Shown: positions 32,827-39,918, counted from the stretch's first letter. The stretch is 57,505 nt of DNA from a bacterium (GCA_009885735.1 VFKD01000043.1:1-57505); one strand, 5' to 3'. A program made the numbers and translations. The notes: generated by a model from the sequence alone, not told the origin.

Positions 32827-33282
32827 ATGTCAAACCGCACAGCCGTTGTAGAGACGAGCAAGGGAACCATTCGCTTCGAGCTGGATGAAGCAGGCGCGCC
32901 TATCACCACCGCAAACTTCATCGCATTGGCGGAGAGCGGATTCTATAACGGGCTCAAGTTCCACCGCTACGTATCAGGTTTCGTCATTCAGGGCGGCTGT
33001 CCGCAGGGTACCGGCACCGGAAACGCAGGCAAGCAGATCAAACTCGAGACGAAGGGCAAGTTCAAGCACGACACCGCGGGCACGGTGGCCATGGCGCGTT
33101 CGCCAGAGCCGGATTCGGCCTCCTGCCAGTTCTACTTCACGCTGGCCCCAGCCACGTTCCTGGATGCCGAGAATGCCCAGGATGGGTTTGGCTATGCAGC
33201 ATTCGGCAAGGTGAACGAGGGATTGGAAGCTGTGCTCGCCCTCCGGAAGGGCGACACGATAACCACGGTAAGCGTGGAGTAG
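32827..33282 (+). CDS. Peptidyl-prolyl cis-trans isomerase, cyclophilin type
   Basis: [21 protein letters not shown] and SQFYFTL-like (CQFYFTL) motifs. 151 aa. Confidence 0.93.
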
Positions 33283-33446: not shown

Positions 33447-34079
33447 ATGAGTTCAGCATACAATCGAATACGATCGGAGGACCCAGCCCACGAGGCGCTG
33501 GAGGCGCTGCGCCGACGCGGCGGGCTCGCTCGCACGGGTGACCTGGCGCGCGAGGGAATCCGAGCGTCCACACTCACCGCCCTGTGGCGGGAAGGTCGTC
33601 TCATTCGGATTAAGGCGGGACTCTATCAGCTCCCGGACTCGCTCGCCGAGGAACATGCCGCGCTGCTGCAGGCGGCTCTCGCCGTGCCGGATGGCGTGAT
33701 CTGTCTGATATCCGCTCTGGACTACTACGGCCTCACGGACGCCAACCCGGAGGCAGTGTTCATCGCAATTCTCATGGGTGGGTGGGCGCCGAAGGTTATC
33801 GAACCCCCGGTACGGTTTGTCCGTTTTCGATCTCGGCTGTTCGACATGGAGATCTGTCGGGAGGAGATCGGCGGACGATCGGTCCGGATATACTCGCCCG
33901 AGAAGACTCTCTGTGACTGCCTCCGGCTGCCGGAGATTGTAGGGCTGGACATTACACTGGCTGCTCTTCGCCGCTATCTGGGGTCGCCGGAAGCAAATCG
34001 GAGCCGCCTAATGGAAGTGGCGCAGGCGTGCAGGGTCGAGCGCCGCCTGCGCCCTTATGTGGAGGCCATGGATGGCTGA
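33447..34079 (+). CDS. abiEi: AbiEi-family type IV antitoxin (winged-helix regulator)
   Basis: N-terminal transcriptional-regulator-like domain (LARTGDLAREGIRASTLTALWREGRLIRIKAGLYQL). The size and its pairing with a DUF1814 nucleotidyltransferase match AbiEi. Confidence 0.75.
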   Translation: MSSAYNRIRSEDPAHEALEALRRRGGLARTGDLAREGIRASTLTALWREGRLIRIKAGLYQLPDSLAEEHAALLQAALAVPDGVICLISALDYYGLTDANPEAVFIAILMGGWAPKVIEPPVRFVRFRSRLFDMEICREEIGGRSVRIYSPEKTLCDCLRLPEIVGLDITLAALRRYLGSPEANRSRLMEVAQACRVERRLRPYVEAMDG

Positions 34080-35037
34080 CCATGGTGGTGATCAGGAGGA
34101 TCGACCGCAAACAGCCGCTGCGCGGGCTATGTCGGTTCGGGACCGCCTGCTCAATCTCGCTCGCGGTCAGGGCGTGCCCTACAACACGCTGCTGCGCCGT
34201 TTCCTGGGGGAGAGGTTTCTCTGGCGGCTGGCTCAGTCACCCTTTCAGGACGAGTTCATCTTGAAGGGTGCCTTCCGGTTGGTTGCCCGCAGCACAAGCT
34301 GGGCACGCGCAACCCGCGACATCGACCTACTGGGCAGCGGCGCATCCGACCCGGAACGGCTCGCGGCGATTTTCCGTGAGATTTGCATGGTGGAAGTTGA
34401 TGCCGAAGATGCCGCCCGTTTCGATCCGGAGACCGTGCAGGCAGTCGCGATCATAGAGGGAGCGGAATATGGCGGGATCCGCGTAACTCTGACCGCGTAT
34501 CTGGGCACGGCACGCGAGCGGATTCAGGTCGATATAGGCTTTGGTGATGCGGTTACACCGTCGCCCGAATCCCTCCAGGTGCCCTCACTCCTGCCGGGCA
34601 TGCCGATGGCTCAACTTCGGGCGTACAATGACGTAACGACCGTCGCCGAGAAGTTCCAGGCGATGGTTAAGCTGGGACCGACGAATAGCCGCATGAAAGA
34701 CTTCTACGATCTCTATCGATTCGCCACTACAACGGAGTTCGATGGCCGGCTGCTGGGAGAAGCGATCCGGAGGACCTTCGAGAGGCGTGCAACTGCATTT
34801 CACGAAAGCGAGGCGACTTTGGCGCCGGCGTTTCGGCTGATCCCTGGCAAGCAGACGCAGTGGGTGGCATTCCGCAGGTCTCTCGGCGTGGCAGCGATGG
34901 AGGTTCCGGAAGAGTTTGCGGAATTGGTCGCCACGATTCAAGGATTCCTGTGTCCGGTTCACCTCGCGTGCCGACAACAAAAGCCGCTGAGCCTGGGCTG
35001 GAATCCAGAGGCTCGTTTGTGGGAAGTCGAACTGTAG
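34072..35037 (+). CDS. abiEii: AbiEii/AbiGii-family nucleotidyltransferase toxin (DUF1814)
   Basis: ERFLWRLAQSPF, FILKGAF, TRDIDLLG and KFQAMV motifs. The ATG at 34072 has GGAGG 6 nt upstream and overlaps the abiEi stop by 8 nt. Confidence 0.82.
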   Translation: MADHGGDQEDRPQTAAARAMSVRDRLLNLARGQGVPYNTLLRRFLGERFLWRLAQSPFQDEFILKGAFRLVARSTSWARATRDIDLLGSGASDPERLAAIFREICMVEVDAEDAARFDPETVQAVAIIEGAEYGGIRVTLTAYLGTARERIQVDIGFGDAVTPSPESLQVPSLLPGMPMAQLRAYNDVTTVAEKFQAMVKLGPTNSRMKDFYDLYRFATTTEFDGRLLGEAIRRTFERRATAFHESEATLAPAFRLIPGKQTQWVAFRRSLGVAAMEVPEEFAELVATIQGFLCPVHLACRQQKPLSLGWNPEARLWEVEL

Positions 35038-35104
35038 GCTGCAGCTCGTCAGTATGTCTCGTCACCGCTAACCACGTGGGACGGCCCGCAAGAAAGGCAC
35101 GCAC

Positions 35105-35410
35105 ATGAGTTCTGTAACTTCGGAGTCTGTCCGCAGAGAGTTGGCCGATGCTCTTCGGATCGACCTGGTGGGTCCGAACAACGACCATGCGTTTGCCCGC
35201 GAACTGGTGCCCGAGCCGCCCTCGCGCTGGTATCTTACCGGTTTTCTGGTTCCATCCGGCGCATCACTCGAGCGCCGTTCCGATCCTACATCGCAGGAGG
35301 AGCTAGACCTTGCCGGCGAACTCGGGGTGTCGCGACGAATGCGATTGCGGGGAACCATATCTCCGGCCCTGACTGCACGACGCGATCTTAGGCGTGCCGG
35401 TACGGGTTGA
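35105..35410 (+). pseudogene. Possible 5' remnant of a large defence-type helicase gene
   Basis: The first 55 or so residues (RIDLVGPNNDHAFARELVPEPPSRWYLTGFLVP) resemble, from memory, the N-terminus of large helicase-like defence proteins. The remainder is Arg-rich low complexity, and the frame ends just before cysM. Confidence 0.2.
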
Positions 35411-35469
35411 CTGTCAATGGGTGTTGAGCCCCTGCCCGTTCCTGACAAATGCTATACTTTTGGTCAGGA

Positions 35470-36444
35470 ATGACCGCGATGACACTGCCGGAACCCAAGC
35501 TGAGCCCGCCGAGCGTGCGCACGGCTGAGCTCTCGATCGTTGAGCTGATCGGCAACACCCCGCTTCTGAAACTGCGCAAGATCGTGCCCGCCAATCCGCG
35601 CGTCGAGATTCTCGCGAAGGCCGAGTGGTACAACCCCGGCGGCTCTATCAAGGATCGTCCCGCGTGGAACATTATCCAGGAGGCCGAGCGCTCCGGCAGG
35701 CTGACTCCGGACAAGACCATCCTGGACGCCACAAGCGGCAACACCGGCATCGCCTATGCAATGATCGGCGCAGCCTGCGGGTACCGGGTTACTCTGTGCC
35801 TTCCGTTGAACGCCAACGAGGAGCGCAAGAGCCTTCTGCGCGCTTTCGGCGCGGAGCTTGTCCTCACGGACCCCAGGCAGAGCTCCGACGGCGCTATTCT
35901 GAAGGCACGGGAACTCTTTGCCGCGAATCCGGATAGATACTTCTACGCGGACCAGTACAATAATCCTGCCAACTGGCAGGCGCACTATGCGTCGACAGGA
36001 CTCGAAATCTGGCGACAAACCGGCGGGCGCATCACGCACTTTGTTGCCGGCCTCGGCACCAGCGGGACGTTCATGGGAGTGGGCCGGTACCTGAGGCATG
36101 TCGCTCCTCACGTAAAGCTCGTTTCGATGCAGCCCGATTCGCCGTTTCACGGCCTTGAGGGCATGAAGCACATGGAGACGGCAATTGTTCCCGGCATCTA
36201 CGAACCGTCCCTTGCCGACAGCGCATTGGAGGTGGGCACGGAGGATGCGCACACCATGGTGAAGCGCCTCGCGCGGGAGGAGGGAGTGCTTGTGGGCATC
36301 TCGTCCGCTGCGAACCTGGTGGCGTCACTGAAGTTGGCTGAGACTCTGGACGAGGGCGTTATCGTGACGATCTTCTGCGACAATGGCGACCGCTATCTGT
36401 CGGACAGGTTCTGGGAGGAGGAGACCGGTGATCCGGCTATCTGA
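35470..36444 (+). CDS. cysM: Cysteine synthase, PLP-dependent (CysM-like)
   Basis: NPGGSIKDRPA (PLP lysine), TSGNTGIAYA and GLGTSGTFMG motifs. The start could be ATG 35449, 35470 or 35479. Confidence 0.9.
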   Translation: MTAMTLPEPKLSPPSVRTAELSIVELIGNTPLLKLRKIVPANPRVEILAKAEWYNPGGSIKDRPAWNIIQEAERSGRLTPDKTILDATSGNTGIAYAMIGAACGYRVTLCLPLNANEERKSLLRAFGAELVLTDPRQSSDGAILKARELFAANPDRYFYADQYNNPANWQAHYASTGLEIWRQTGGRITHFVAGLGTSGTFMGVGRYLRHVAPHVKLVSMQPDSPFHGLEGMKHMETAIVPGIYEPSLADSALEVGTEDAHTMVKRLAREEGVLVGISSAANLVASLKLAETLDEGVIVTIFCDNGDRYLSDRFWEEETGDPAI

Positions 36445-36844
36445 CGAGCTGCTCAGCGGCATTCGCGACCATGCCCGCGCTGACTATCCATATGAGTGCT
36501 GCGGCGCGATGCTGGGAACCGAAGTTGGTGGTCTGAAAGAAATCACTGAGCTGCGCCCAGTGGAGAATGTCCATGAGGACGGACATGAGCGCAGATTCCT
36601 GATTTCGGCTCGCGATATGTTTCTGATCGAACGCGAGGCTCGAGCAAAGAGCCTCAACGTGCTTGGATTCTACCATTCGCACCCGGACCATCCCGCACGG
36701 CCTAGCGAGTATGACCGCGAACATGCCTGGCCGTACTATAGCTACGTGATTGTCTCGGTGATGAAGGGCGAGCCTGCCGACATGACGAGCTGGACCCTCG
36801 CCGAGGGCGGCCTCGCCTTCGACGCGGAGGAGATTCAGTCCTGA
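36428..36844 (+). CDS. mec: JAMM/MPN+ metalloprotease (Mec-like)
   Basis: ECCG and HSHPDHPARPSEYD (JAMM H-x-H-x7-S-x2-D). The GTG at 36428 follows GGAGGAGGAG and overlaps the cysM stop by 17 nt. Confidence 0.85.
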   Translation: MIRLSDELLSGIRDHARADYPYECCGAMLGTEVGGLKEITELRPVENVHEDGHERRFLISARDMFLIEREARAKSLNVLGFYHSHPDHPARPSEYDREHAWPYYSYVIVSVMKGEPADMTSWTLAEGGLAFDAEEIQS

Positions 36845-36849
36845 TCTCC

Positions 36850-36869
36850 GGGTGGGGCTTGCCCCACCC
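36850..36869 (+). terminator. Short GC hairpin between mec and the carrier-E1 gene
   Basis: gggtgggg cttg ccccaccc forms an 8-bp perfect stem. There is no U-tract, so it may be a processing or stability element rather than a terminator. Confidence 0.3.
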
Positions 36870-36965
36870 TGCCGGTGCCTACTCACAGGTAAACTGAACA
36901 CGACAGATCCAGAATGGACGCTGTCCATCTGCCGCCAGAGTCCGTAGGACGAGGAGAGAGCCCAA

Positions 36966-38420
36966 ATGCCGGTAAAACTGCTGATTCCCACTGCTTTACT
37001 GCGCTACGCAGACGGCGTAGATGAGATAGAAGTTCAGGCCGCCACGGTCAAAGAGGCCCTTGAGCAGCTCGCCGACGGCCACCCGGAGATAAAGCGGCAC
37101 CTGTTCGGAGCGGATGGCGAGTTGCGCCACTACGTGAACGTCTATGTGGGCACGGAAGACATGCGCCACCTGGACGGCATAGCCACCGTGCTCGCCGAAG
37201 GCGCCGAGGTAACCATCGTGCCCAGCATTGCCGGCGGTGTTGGGGTGCTCCGCGACGACTTTGAGTCGGTCACCCTCAGCAAAGAGGAAATGCTTCGATA
37301 CAGCCGCCATCTCATCATGCCCGAGGTGGCAGTCGCCGGACAGAAGAAGCTGAAGGCCGCGAGGGTGCTTTGCATCGGAGCTGGAGGGCTGGGATCGCCT
37401 CTGACGATGTATCTCGCAGCGGCTGGAGTGGGCACTATCGGCATCGTCGACTTCGATGTGGTGGACTACACGAACTTGCAGCGCCAAATTATCCACGGCA
37501 CCGAGGATGTGGGCCGCCTGAAGCTGCACTCTGCCATAGACTCGCTGAAGAGCATCAATCCGTTCGTCAACGTCATTGGATTCGAGGAGCGCTTCACCTC
37601 CGAGAATGCCCTGGACATCGTCAAGGACTTCGACATCGTCATAGACGGCACAGACAACTTCCCCACGCGCTACCTGGTGAACGACGCCTGCGTGCTGATG
37701 GGCAAGCCGAACGTCTATGGCTCGATTTTCCGGTTCGAGGGTCAGGCCAGCGTATTCTGGGCTGAAAAGGGCCCGTGCTACCGCTGTCTTTATCCCGAGC
37801 CGCCACCTCCCGGCATGGTGCCGTCGTGTGCAGAGGGAGGCGTCTTGGGCATCCTTCCCGGCGAGATCGGCATCATCCAGGCCACGGAAGCCATCAAGCT
37901 CATCCTGGGTATCGGCGACCCGCTGGTCGGCAGGCTGCTGCTCTTTAATGCGCTCAAGATGAGCTGGAGAGAGCTGAAGCTGCGCAAGGACCCAAGCTGC
38001 CCGCTCTGCGGCGATAACCCCACCATCACGGAGCTGATCGACTACGAGCAGTTCTGCGGCATTTTGCCGCCCTCCGTGGAAGCTCCCGGCCAAAGTTTGT
38101 CCAAGTGGGAGATGTCGGTCGTGGAGCTCAAGGCGAGCATGGACCGTGGCGAGAAGCCCTTCGTACTGGATGTTCGCGAACCCTACGAGCGTGAGATTGC
38201 TAATATCCCGGACACGATTCTCATCCCGATGAACGAAGTTCCGAACCGCCTCAATGAGATTCCCAGGGACCGCGAGGTGATACTGCAATGCAGGTCCGGC
38301 CAGCGCTCGATGGATATCCTCGAGTACCTGCGCACGCAAGGGTATACAGAGCTGAAGAACCTGAAGGGCGGTGTCTTGGCATGGTCGGACGAGATCGACC
38401 CTGAAGTTGCGCAGTATTAG
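36966..38420 (+). CDS. Fusion protein: ThiS/MoaD/CysO-like sulfur carrier + MoeZ/MoeB-type adenylyltransferase + rhodanese
   Basis: Residues 1-91 have a beta-grasp carrier pattern ending TIVPSIAGG (GG codons at 37233..37238). The frame continues without a stop into LRYSRHLIMPEVAVAGQKKLKAARVLCIGAGGLGSP, PPPGMVPSCAEGGVLG and a C-terminal rhodanese domain with CRSGQRS. Confidence 0.85.
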   Translation: MPVKLLIPTALLRYADGVDEIEVQAATVKEALEQLADGHPEIKRHLFGADGELRHYVNVYVGTEDMRHLDGIATVLAEGAEVTIVPSIAGGVGVLRDDFESVTLSKEEMLRYSRHLIMPEVAVAGQKKLKAARVLCIGAGGLGSPLTMYLAAAGVGTIGIVDFDVVDYTNLQRQIIHGTEDVGRLKLHSAIDSLKSINPFVNVIGFEERFTSENALDIVKDFDIVIDGTDNFPTRYLVNDACVLMGKPNVYGSIFRFEGQASVFWAEKGPCYRCLYPEPPPPGMVPSCAEGGVLGILPGEIGIIQATEAIKLILGIGDPLVGRLLLFNALKMSWRELKLRKDPSCPLCGDNPTITELIDYEQFCGILPPSVEAPGQSLSKWEMSVVELKASMDRGEKPFVLDVREPYEREIANIPDTILIPMNEVPNRLNEIPRDREVILQCRSGQRSMDILEYLRTQGYTELKNLKGGVLAWSDEIDPEVAQY

Positions 38421-38461
38421 CCTTCGGGAACTTTCAAACCACGTAAGCCGATAATGAAACC

Positions 38462-38914
38462 ATGAGATCACATCGGTCTTTTGCCGCTAGGTGGTTCGCC
38501 CTGCTCGTCGCAATCGCGACTTGCAGTTCGACCGCGGCTACGACCGTCCGATGGCAGTGTACTGACGGCACGCCGTGCCCGGCAGACTGCCGAATGGCGC
38601 ATGGCGTAGTTCCCAAGGACAACGTGAAGGCTCCGGCCTGTCCTCGCTGCAAGCTCGACTCTGCCGTTCAACCGACGCGCGGGAGCGGCGTGGGCTGCAC
38701 ATCGCCGGTATGTGTTCCCCGCGTTACGGCTCCAACTCAGTCTCGCACAGCCGACGTTTACGCTCCCTCTATCGACCACTCGGCGTGCTTGTCGGAACTG
38801 CCGCCTCTTCCGACTCCATTGGGTTCAGAAGAGCACACTTGTGCCGACATCCCCTTTGTCCCTCCGCAGCCCCCTGGAGCCACTGGCGCACGCGCGCCTC
38901 CCTCGCTCTCCTAG
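38462..38914 (+). CDS. Cys-rich secreted hypothetical protein
   Basis: Signal-like MRSHRSFAARWFALLVAIATCSS. Contains CTDGTPCPADC and CPRC motifs and a Pro-rich tail. GATAAT (38450..38455) lies 6 nt upstream of the ATG, suggesting a leaderless mRNA. Confidence 0.45.
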   Translation: MRSHRSFAARWFALLVAIATCSSTAATTVRWQCTDGTPCPADCRMAHGVVPKDNVKAPACPRCKLDSAVQPTRGSGVGCTSPVCVPRVTAPTQSRTADVYAPSIDHSACLSELPPLPTPLGSEEHTCADIPFVPPQPPGATGARAPPSLS

Positions 38915-38988
38915 ATCCGTCCGATTGCACCTCTGATGGTTTGGCACGCCTGCGCCAAGCCCGCATGCACTCACATCTAGGAGATTCC

Positions 38989-39918
38989 ATGACTCATCAG
39001 ATCAACGCGTGGCAGACTGCCGTGGCCCTCTGGCTTGCCGCATTTGGTCCAGCGGCAGCACTCGCCCACGAACCGCTCTGGGGCGAATCGCCCCAAACGT
39101 TCGCCTTCGGGGTGTTTCATCCCGAGATTCGCTTTGGCTACGACAATGCATCGGTGCTGCTCGGCGGCAGCCGCAGACTCCATAACCCGGACAGTCTGCG
39201 ACGGTCGCGCCTGGACAGCCTCGTCTCGCTCGCCTATGCGCCCGAAACCTGGCTGAACGTCAAGCTGGAAGTACCCTTCGCGCAGGTCGCAAGCCAACAG
39301 CGCATTGCCGGTTCGCTGCGAAGTTCAACCGTTTCCGGAACAGGCGACCTGGTGCTAAGCGCCAAAACGCGGTTCGAACAGCGCTTCGGACCAGACTGGA
39401 AGTTCCACCAGAGCGCAACGGTCGGCCTGCAGCTTCCCACGGGTGAGCGAGGAGGGCGCATGCCGGACGGATCGCTGCTGGCGCCGTCCGACCAGCCGGG
39501 TTCGGGGCGGTTCGGATTGAGCCTCGGCTATGCGGTTGCCTATGAGCGGCTTGCAGACACCACCTGGGCATCGGTCATGTTCCGCACGGATGCTCCGTCG
39601 GGGAAATACCGCCGAGGCGACAGCCTGATGGCGGACGCGGCATACGGCTACTGGGTTCGGCGGGCACTCAGGCCACAGGACGAAGGATTGCTTCTCGCGC
39701 TGGGGCCTCACCTGGAGATGTCCGGCAAGGATAGAGCTGCCGGCGCCTCGGACCCAAACAGCGGATACACATCCATCGGCCTGCAGGCGACGTTCATCCG
39801 AACCCAAGGGCAGACCCAGACCCGGATCGGCATTCTCGTGCCTCTTCACCAGCATGTGGCCGGTACTCAACTTCGAAGCGACCTGCAGATACGCGCAGGA
39901 TGGGAGATGCTGCTATGA
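38989..39918 (+). CDS. Outer-membrane beta-barrel protein (MetA-pathway/transporter-like family)
   Basis: The start MTHQINAWQTAVALWLAAFGPAAALA is a signal peptide, with AGGAG 5 nt upstream. Alternating beta-strand pattern throughout. The ORF-track start at 38575 adds an implausible Arg/Ser-rich extension. Confidence 0.6.
   Translation: MTHQINAWQTAVALWLAAFGPAAALAHEPLWGESPQTFAFGVFHPEIRFGYDNASVLLGGSRRLHNPDSLRRSRLDSLVSLAYAPETWLNVKLEVPFAQVASQQRIAGSLRSSTVSGTGDLVLSAKTRFEQRFGPDWKFHQSATVGLQLPTGERGGRMPDGSLLAPSDQPGSGRFGLSLGYAVAYERLADTTWASVMFRTDAPSGKYRRGDSLMADAAYGYWVRRALRPQDEGLLLALGPHLEMSGKDRAAGASDPNSGYTSIGLQATFIRTQGQTQTRIGILVPLHQHVAGTQLRSDLQIRAGWEMLL

Follow-up and report, generated by a model that had tools for sequence, protein, structure and literature searches.

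A widespread in-frame fusion of a CysO-like sulfur carrier domain to a MoeZ-like E1-rhodanese enzyme, encoded beside a JAMM peptidase that may release it

There are three open reading frames (ORFs) on the same strand between positions 35449 and 38420 (+) of the bacterial DNA stretch VFKD01000043.1:1-57505 (GCA_009885735.1), the whole of which, 57,505 nucleotides, is called the window below. As found by an ORF scan, they encode a pyridoxal phosphate (PLP)-dependent cysteine synthase, a JAMM/MPN+ metallopeptidase, and a 484 amino acid protein that begins as a ubiquitin-like (Ubl) sulfur carrier and continues in the same frame as an adenylating enzyme (E1) with a rhodanese domain. This carrier-E1 fusion is real and common, and it is not an artefact of assembly. 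We judge it probable (about 0.72) that the three genes form an operon for thiocarboxylate-dependent cysteine synthesis, in which the JAMM peptidase cuts the fusion protein after its internal Gly-Gly, at Gly91, and so frees the carrier from the MoeZ-like E1. A preliminary description of this DNA had named the same cluster of a PLP cysteine synthase, a JAMM protease and a 484 amino acid ORF, and all three are present as stated, with Pfam PALP and Prok-JAB matches and the corresponding motifs; the domain matches pass curated thresholds and are far above chance level. The start given there, 35470, is Met8 of the 331 amino acid ORF at 35449..36444.

The fusion ORF occupies 36966..38420 (+) in an uninterrupted frame, and its product (predicted mass 53.26 kDa) consists of the carrier, a linker, the E1 adenylation domain and the rhodanese domain. 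Residues 1-91 (36966..37238 (+); predicted released product 9776 Da) had been described beforehand as a beta-grasp carrier ending in TIVPSIAGG, and each line of evidence agrees with that description. The Pfam model ThiS (PF02597) matches residues 15-91 with E=4.9e-8, or with E=1.9e-9 when residues 1-91 are searched alone (38.4 bits, with a gathering cutoff of 22.5), and the match reaches the last position of the profile (76 of 76) precisely at G91. When compared with the Protein Data Bank (PDB), residues 2-91 match CysO proteins end to end, both from Amycolatopsis (4n6e_B, 5.4e-12) and from Mycobacterium tuberculosis (3dwg_C, 2e-11), such that IVPSIAGG of the fusion aligns with ILPAVAGG of CysO. 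An AlphaFold2 (AF2) model of the same 91 residues has a mean predicted local distance difference test score (pLDDT) of 90.7 and a predicted template modelling score (pTM) of 0.81, and Foldseek superimposes it on CysO (3dwg_C and 4n6e_B) and on SAMP1 with template modelling (TM) scores of 0.85-0.88. Judged by profile matches and predicted fold, the N-terminal piece is really a CysO-like ThiS/MoaD beta-grasp sulfur carrier domain.

The Gly90-Gly91 pair at 37233..37238 (+) is the predicted scissile site, with the cut placed after G91, and the pair aligns with the terminal GG of CysO. The DNA across the junction, read directly, is GCC GGC GGT GTT GGG GTG CTC; as stated earlier for this DNA, the Gly codons are internal, and they are followed by neither a stop codon nor a change of frame. 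The carrier Gly therefore has no free C-terminal carboxylate in the primary product, where 393 residues follow the GG. Thus, the domain can qualify as a sulfur carrier only after proteolysis. An alignment of 68 sequences shows P86, A89, G90 and G91 to be invariant, and across 120 homologues AGG is invariant and IVPSIAGG nearly so.

A linker of residues 92-103 (VGVLRDDFESVT; 37239..37274 (+)), delimited by homologue comparison and by the AF2 model, runs from the GG to the sequence LSxxExLRYSRH at which the E1 begins. Among the 120 homologues the distance from GG to RYSRH ranges from 14 to 62 amino acids (median 28) with no conservation of linker sequence, and the P1' residue that follows the GG is mostly V, A, T or S. 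In an AF2 model of the full-length chain, pLDDT drops below 50 at residues 87-97 while the flanking domains are both modelled with confidence, and thus the junction is predicted to be exposed and flexible. The PDB search also aligned the carrier to residues 9-87 of 1v8c, a 168 amino acid 'MoaD related protein' from Thermus thermophilus. That match ends at an internal GG followed by a second domain, which makes 1v8c another natural carrier with a blocked GG.

The remainder of the ORF had been assigned to an adenylation domain plus a rhodanese domain with the motif CRSGQRS, and the Pfam matches concur. The ThiF/MoeB-type adenylation domain covers residues 112-346 (37299..38003 (+); ThiF PF00899, E=1.6e-82) and carries the ATP loop GAGGLG at residues 138-143 (37377..37394 (+), found by motif search), the zinc-binding Cys pairs CYRC (271-274) and CPLC (345-348), and Cys288 within SCAEGG. 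The rhodanese domain covers residues 386-475 (38121..38390 (+); Rhodanese PF00581, E=7.5e-13), and a motif search places its active-site Cys442 (38289..38291 (+)) in CRSGQRS, of which CRSGQR is residues 442-447. Within the 68-sequence alignment the ATP loop, both CxxC pairs and Cys288 are invariant, as are C442, G445, R447 and S448 of the rhodanese. Foldseek matched the chain beyond the carrier to MoeB (1jw9_B, TMt 0.93) and also to ThiF and Uba4, and the rhodanese domain was aligned to the Uba4 rhodanese of 6yub in the PDB search.

There are 120 best-scoring clusters (at 90% identity) in our protein search of NCBI, JGI, ENA and Logan sequences, and all 120 are of fusion length, namely 461-516 amino acids with most at 476-516, and 61-76% identical to the window protein. 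The precomputed Pfam trio of ThiS, ThiF and Rhodanese is assigned to 118 of them, and the remaining two match the fusion in length and contain IVPSIAGG. The nearest relatives of the window protein, at 72-76% identity, belong to the Chthonomonadales of the Armatimonadota. An exhaustive search of representatives at 50% identity shows how far the fusion extends, in that approximately 12 of the best 150 are fused, down to 40% identity, and the others of these 150 are ordinary E1-rhodanese proteins of 370-400 amino acids.

Genome loci were scanned with one genome per species. At least 586 genomes carry a relative, and the best 80 loci, with flanks of up to 4 kb, were classified; 71 of the 80 are fused. 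These 80 loci derive from Armatimonadota, many classes of Acidobacteriota, Kryptoniota, Omnitrophica, Ignavibacteriales, Chloroflexota and others. Almost every fused locus (70 of 71) includes a JAMM match. In 68 the JAMM gene immediately precedes the fusion; the other two matches are separated or weak, and in one locus (L014) the JAMM gene is about 1.3 kb upstream of the fusion. Of the 71 fused loci, 64 have a cysM-like match in their flank, and in approximately 60 this match immediately precedes the JAMM gene, giving the gene order cysM-JAMM-fusion.

The JAMM/MPN+ metallopeptidase of the window is Mec+-like, and its longest ORF, of 153 amino acids, extends over 36383..36844 (+) (Pfam Prok-JAB PF14464, E=1e-28, 100 bits with a cutoff of 25). 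Its catalytic set E38 + HxH-x7-S-xx-D is complete: a regular expression applied to the translation locates H98-S-H100-x7-S108-x2-D111 (HSHPDHPARPSEYD, residues 98-111) at 36674..36715 (+), and the partner Glu38, read from the translation as a motif, is encoded at 36494..36496 (+). The best PDB match is 2kcq (1.5e-24), in which an identical HSHPDHPARPS is aligned. The longest ORF overlaps the end of the cysM gene by 62 nucleotides (36383..36444). Translation probably begins at GTG 36428, a start that would give 138 amino acids, is preceded by the Shine-Dalgarno-like GGAGGAGGAG and overlaps the stop codon of cysM; homologue alignments start near residue 16 of the longest ORF, in agreement with this choice. 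A spacer of 121 nucleotides (36845..36965 (+)), also read directly, separates the JAMM gene from the fusion gene and places a ribosome-binding-like GGAGAGAG ahead of ATG 36966. Gene linkage and precedents from related systems (PMC3227635, PMC5925218 and PMC8832034) suggest that this peptidase would hydrolyse the bond that follows the carrier GG.

There are eight split loci among the best 80, in which a stop codon lies between carrier and E1 within the same operon and in the same order. The carrier and E1 genes share a reading frame in all eight, as expected if a stop codon had arisen inside a linker. None of the eight free carriers ends at the GG. Instead, they have between 1 and about 27 additional residues, with ends such as GG-R, GG-RE, GG-NGDR, GG-CSALNK, GG-KEAGVVKA and GG followed by about 25 residues. 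A search of the protein database for carrier-only homologues gave 18 candidates, which serve as examples and not as frequencies, and the independent free carriers found in this way are also extended (GG-K, -R, -W, -GA, -RS, -VI, -SNG and -TNRV); two of them sit in PALP-JAB-ThiS-ThiF/Rhodanese operons. Since split and free carriers are all extended past the GG, processing after the GG looks, from these sequences, to be general in this operon family, with the E1 fusion as its extreme form. In a neighbour-joining tree built from the E1 portion, the split loci are scattered among the fused ones at five or more separate positions, which points to repeated interconversion between fusion and split forms.

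Other architectures join the same domains in different ways. Among cultured isolates, a Pseudomonas sp. encodes JAB-Ubl-ThiF-Rhodanese as a single chain of 619 amino acids (WP_457339519.1, P0186), and Teredinibacter waterburyi encodes JAB-ThiS-Rhodanese-ThiF in 634 amino acids (WP_188152452.1, P0162, with six cluster members). Ubl-Rhodanese-ThiF and Ubl-ThiF forms are represented by P0141 and P0143. The GG is kept at the carrier end in all of these forms. In the chains that begin with JAB, a cut after the GG would leave the protease on the carrier N-terminus.

Several individual relatives were also noted. In a metagenome-assembled genome (MAG) from Armatimonadota (L067, 2108..3782), an E1-rhodanese gene adjoins the JAMM gene and has no carrier domain. 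The N-terminus of this E1 retains the linker NSVGVISDERGEAAEL that is seen after the GG in fused Chthonomonadaceae proteins, which suggests that the carrier domain was lost or relocated. An archaeal MAG (L047, Ca. Sysuiplasma) has a stop codon between the carrier and E1 ORFs and was classed as split, and its position among bacterial copies on the E1 tree hints at horizontal transfer. In L047, and likewise in L021, cysM directly adjoins the carrier gene, and a convincing JAMM gene is missing within 4 kb. A 142 amino acid protein (P0125) encoded on a 910-kb contig has the carrier with its GG, then a linker-like tail of 50 residues that ends immediately ahead of the expected LSNDEILRYSRH; judged from its sequence, the gene looks as if it was split at the distal end of the linker or has a frameshift. 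Finally, a 390 amino acid NCBI 'MoeB' (HZO87026.1, P0296) is identical to residues 113-501 of a 501 amino acid Chthonomonadaceae fusion in the same 90% cluster (P0037), and begins with M where P0037 has Ile in the linker. Gene callers may therefore clip off the carrier domain and hide the fusion.

The first gene of the operon encodes a CysK/CysM-family PLP cysteine synthase of 331 amino acids (35449..36444 (+); Pfam PALP, E=3.4e-71). It has the SIKDR motif with the PLP lysine (residues 66-70), SGNTG (96-100) and GLGTSGT (201-207), and it exceeds the cutoff of the NCBIfam cysKM subfamily model TIGR01136 (351.5 bits over 344.15). Its gene context suggests that O-phosphoserine or O-acetylserine would be its substrate and a protein thiocarboxylate its sulfur donor.

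From the anatomy, conservation, gene linkage and predicted fold computed here, we infer the following catalytic steps, including the cleavage. The fusion would be made as a 53-kDa pro-protein whose carrier could not be adenylated, because Gly91 has no free carboxylate. The JAMM peptidase would then hydrolyse the Gly91-Val92 bond in the exposed and disordered linker to yield a 9.8-kDa (9776-Da) CysO-like carrier with the C-terminus -AGG-COOH, along with a MoeZ-like enzyme of 43.5 kDa. The E1 domain of the latter would adenylate Gly91, and a persulfide on rhodanese Cys442 would turn the adenylate into a thiocarboxylate. The PLP enzyme would transfer the sulfur of the thiocarboxylate to an aminoacrylate derived from O-phosphoserine or O-acetylserine, an S-to-N acyl shift would yield carrier-Gly-Gly-Cys, and hydrolysis of this product by the same JAMM enzyme would deliver cysteine and recycle the carrier. 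Because such a pathway already needs a peptidase that cuts right after the GG, any C-terminal extension, from one residue to a whole E1, could be tolerated. This tolerance would explain the repeated fusion and fission among relatives.

The preliminary description had pointed to the JAMM protease as the agent that frees the carrier. That proposal gains strong comparative support from the gene linkage, the invariant GG, the variable linker, the tails of the split carriers and the JAB fusions, and the cleavage itself keeps the standing of a prediction. Several observations weigh against the pathway as we have drawn it. The PLP enzyme scores under the cysM equivalog cutoffs (372.1 versus 394.2 bits for TIGR01138 and 315.5 versus 413 for NF008735), and among PDB entries it matches E. 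coli CysM best (2bht, 1.7e-77), with M. tuberculosis CysM at 5.5e-60 (3dwg_A). Since it is nearer to E. coli CysM and under the cysM cutoff, its acceptor substrate and its dependence on a carrier rest on gene context. The E1 is likewise under the NCBIfam equivalog cutoffs for MoeZ (NF005902/PRK07878, 526.7 versus 647 bits) and MoeB (NF005646/PRK07411, 551.4 versus 633 bits), and by its profile scores it is a member of the MoeZ/MoeB family and not a curated equivalog.

Some fused loci also depart from the expected gene set. One with full flanks (L054) has neither cysM nor JAMM within 4 kb, and an Omnitrophica MAG (L021) has only a weak JAMM-like match of 24% identity, located downstream. Another (L036) has no cysM match, with an upstream flank of only 143 nucleotides, and yet another (L058) has the JAMM gene and no cysM within 4 kb. 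In addition, the full-length AF2 model has a pTM of 0.59, so its placement of the carrier on the E1 is unreliable. The literature searched, from which subscription journals were largely absent, contained no experiment on the fusion protein or its orthologues and no paper on a CysO-type carrier fused to a MoeZ-type E1.

The best-surviving rival explanation accepts cleavage after the GG and gives the products another main job, such as protein conjugation of the SAMP, TtuB or Urm1 kind, molybdopterin synthesis, or thiolation of tRNA or other targets, with the JAMM enzyme as a deconjugase. The database models count in its favour: the best NCBIfam model for the carrier is SAMP1 (59.6 bits, cutoff 60), that for the peptidase is the archaeal desampylase (80.5 bits, cutoff 130), and the top structural match of the carrier is SAMP1 3po0. 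Furthermore, M. tuberculosis MoeZR serves both the molybdenum cofactor (Moco) and the cysteine pathways (PMC3227635). However, the cysM-type gene that directly precedes the JAMM gene in most fused loci does so across several phyla and is present in split operons as well, the best PDB sequence matches of the carrier are the two CysO proteins, and the cluster contains no E2-like, MoaE or tRNA-thiolase gene. We consider this alternative unlikely.

It is quite improbable that the fused beta-grasp domain is never released, and instead stays on the E1 for good in a structural or regulatory role while the real carrier is encoded elsewhere. A precedent exists in ThiF proteins that have an N-terminal Ubl and a solo ThiS in the operon, for which a different role of the fused domain was inferred (PMC1779556). 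A second carrier may also lie elsewhere in the genome, of which the window is one contig; in these 57.5 kb, a hidden Markov model (HMM) built from the fused carrier domains matched the fusion ORF only, and no second carrier gene was found. Nevertheless, the fused domain is a full-length CysO homologue that ends in an invariant GG, which would be needless for a purely structural domain. The operon itself has no other carrier, the split relatives place a free carrier at the same operon position, and the JAMM gene is linked in almost all loci.

The carrier might also be freed by another agent, either by self-cleavage or by a housekeeping protease acting on the linker, in which case the JAMM enzyme would only hydrolyse carrier-Cys. 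The locus without a JAMM match within 4 kb and the weak match of the Omnitrophica locus would fit this idea, and a linker predicted to be disordered would be open to many proteases. However, a productive carrier needs a cut precisely after G91, which a non-specific protease would not give. JAMM enzymes are the known or proposed agents of the cuts in QbsE, CxnE and MoaD-MoaE (PMC5925218 and PMC8832034), and in two lineages a JAB domain is fused to the Ubl-E1 chain itself. Cleavage by an agent other than the JAMM enzyme thus appears very improbable. Lastly, the notion that the single ORF reflects a lost stop codon or a frameshift in sequencing or assembly, which the metagenome-style single contig and the existence of split operons might favour, is effectively refuted, because comparison of the junction with orthologues finds the same uninterrupted architecture in independent genomes (all 120 clusters from four sources and 71 of 80 loci).

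Release of the carrier by the JAMM peptidase for cysteine synthesis, which remains the preferred reading, can be extended in a more speculative direction. The fusion could be a zymogen-like checkpoint in which the tethered carrier occupies or blocks the E1 until the JAMM enzyme is active and, in a bolder version, the released carrier also modifies proteins. We regard this extension as doubtful. If true, the start-up of the pathway would depend on whether the recycling enzyme, which is also required to complete every catalytic cycle, is present, and possibly on its metal or redox state, and the fusion would offer a bacterial model for the frequent blocked precursors of ubiquitin-like proteins.

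The operon lies in otherwise ordinary chromosomal sequence, and GC content is 60% for window and operon alike. No regulatory RNA and no tRNA were detected in the window by Rfam at its gathering threshold and by ARAGORN, and a scan of 34900..38800 for promoter and terminator consensus sequences gave a number of sites not above that of shuffled controls. Just ahead of the operon, at 33447..35037 (+), an AbiEi antitoxin-like gene (210 amino acids) overlaps an AbiEii nucleotidyltransferase toxin-like gene (326 amino acids), and by sequence these appear to be a type IV toxin-antitoxin or abortive-infection pair. A cyclophilin gene is located at 32827..33282. An antisense frame of 491 amino acids (36996..38471 (-)) covers the whole fusion gene and another of 262 amino acids lies opposite cysM (35464..36252), and both are taken as shadow ORFs of GC-rich coding sequence. 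Downstream, a 447 amino acid ORF (38575..39918 (+)) weakly matches the Phenol_MetA_deg outer-membrane channel family (E=6.3e-8), and its real start probably lies well within the listed frame. Other genes of the window include an RND efflux operon and genes for CTP synthase, a flotillin-like protein, a GH116 glycosidase, a prolyl oligopeptidase and an M23 peptidase.

The nearest characterized system is that of M. tuberculosis, in which MoeZR thiocarboxylates CysO, CysM joins CysO to O-phosphoserine, and Mec+ hydrolyses CysO-Cys (PMC3227635). The same four activities are predicted here, with a carrier whose ...AGG end aligns with CysO (3dwg_C) over its full length. However, in M. tuberculosis CysO is its own protein of 93 amino acids whose GG is free, and moeZ is not linked, whereas here the carrier is the N-terminus of the E1 and the genes are adjacent. 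The scheme proposed above would place one further step, the JAMM cut at Gly91-Val92, before that pathway, at no mechanistic cost, since enzymes of the Mec+ type already hydrolyse the peptide bond next to the carrier GG. The arrangement also recalls what Iyer, Burroughs and Aravind (2006) classed as operon type 4c, which comprises ThiS/MoaD, an E1-rhodanese, a JAB protein and a cysteine synthase (PMC1779556). This complete set is present on one strand within 35449..38420, with the same predicted role, and our split relatives are plain examples of the type. The published description of type 4c lists the carrier as a separate gene and, to judge by its text, reports no carrier-E1 fusion for this type.

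Carriers that need trimming are already known. The HcyS-Ala precursor of Wolinella is reportedly another that is trimmed by a JAMM enzyme, HcyD. In thioquinolobactin biosynthesis QbsD trims QbsE-GG-CF, and in chuangxinmycin biosynthesis CxnF is proposed to trim CxnE with its 10 additional amino acids (PMC5925218). In both cases the carrier has residues past the GG and a co-encoded JAMM protein exposes the GG before the E1 acts, and the split relatives described above fit this pattern. The extensions of these known precursors are 1-10 functionless residues, whereas here the extension is a 393-residue activating enzyme. JAMM enzymes also cleave linear MoaD-MoaE fusions, as known for Deinococcus DR0402, Haloferax HvJAMM1 and mycobacterial MoaX (PMC8832034). 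As in our proposal, the GG of the carrier is joined to another protein of the pathway, and activity requires a JAMM cut. However, the partner there is the sulfur acceptor MoaE and the pathway is that of molybdopterin, instead of an E1 and cysteine.

Fusions of a Ubl to an E1 have been mentioned before. In the Ubl-ThiF proteins of Campylobacter and relatives, the Ubl is described as distinct from ThiS, a solo ThiS co-occurs, and the Ubl is thought to have another role (PMC1779556). Makarova and Koonin (2010) refer in one sentence to Ubl-E1 fusions 'shared with bacteria' and describe a Ubl-E1-TBP form of Thaumarchaeota (PMC2948915). These proteins resemble ours in having a beta-grasp domain N-terminal to the adenylation domain, but neither a rhodanese nor a CysM or JAMM context is reported for them, and cleavage was neither proposed nor tested. 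The preliminary description had implied that a carrier-E1 fusion of this kind is not known as characterized. This remains so as far as papers go, since we found none that characterizes it, but the fusion is less singular than implied, because such fusions are widespread and Ubl-E1 forms are mentioned in the two articles just cited. Thus, the carrier-E1 fusion described here is real, widespread, mechanistically predictable and apparently uncharacterized.

If the proposed pathway is correct, hundreds of soil and freshwater bacteria among the Acidobacteriota, Armatimonadota and others would make cysteine via a protein thiocarboxylate, with a carrier that is hidden from annotation inside a gene labelled 'MoeB' and is clipped off in at least one NCBI record. 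The fusion would also provide a defined linear substrate for studies of bacterial JAMM specificity. A eukaryotic parallel is found in polyubiquitin, Ub-L40 and Ub-S27a, in which the GG is blocked by a fused protein and released by a deubiquitinase (PMC11354881). There the partners are ribosomal proteins or ubiquitin and the purpose is conjugation, whereas here the partner is the E1 and the purpose would be sulfur transfer. The series from a single residue after the GG, via a whole E1 after the GG, to the protease-carrier-E1 chain would then represent a peptidase that recycles the carrier and also licenses its precursors, a logic later used for ubiquitin.

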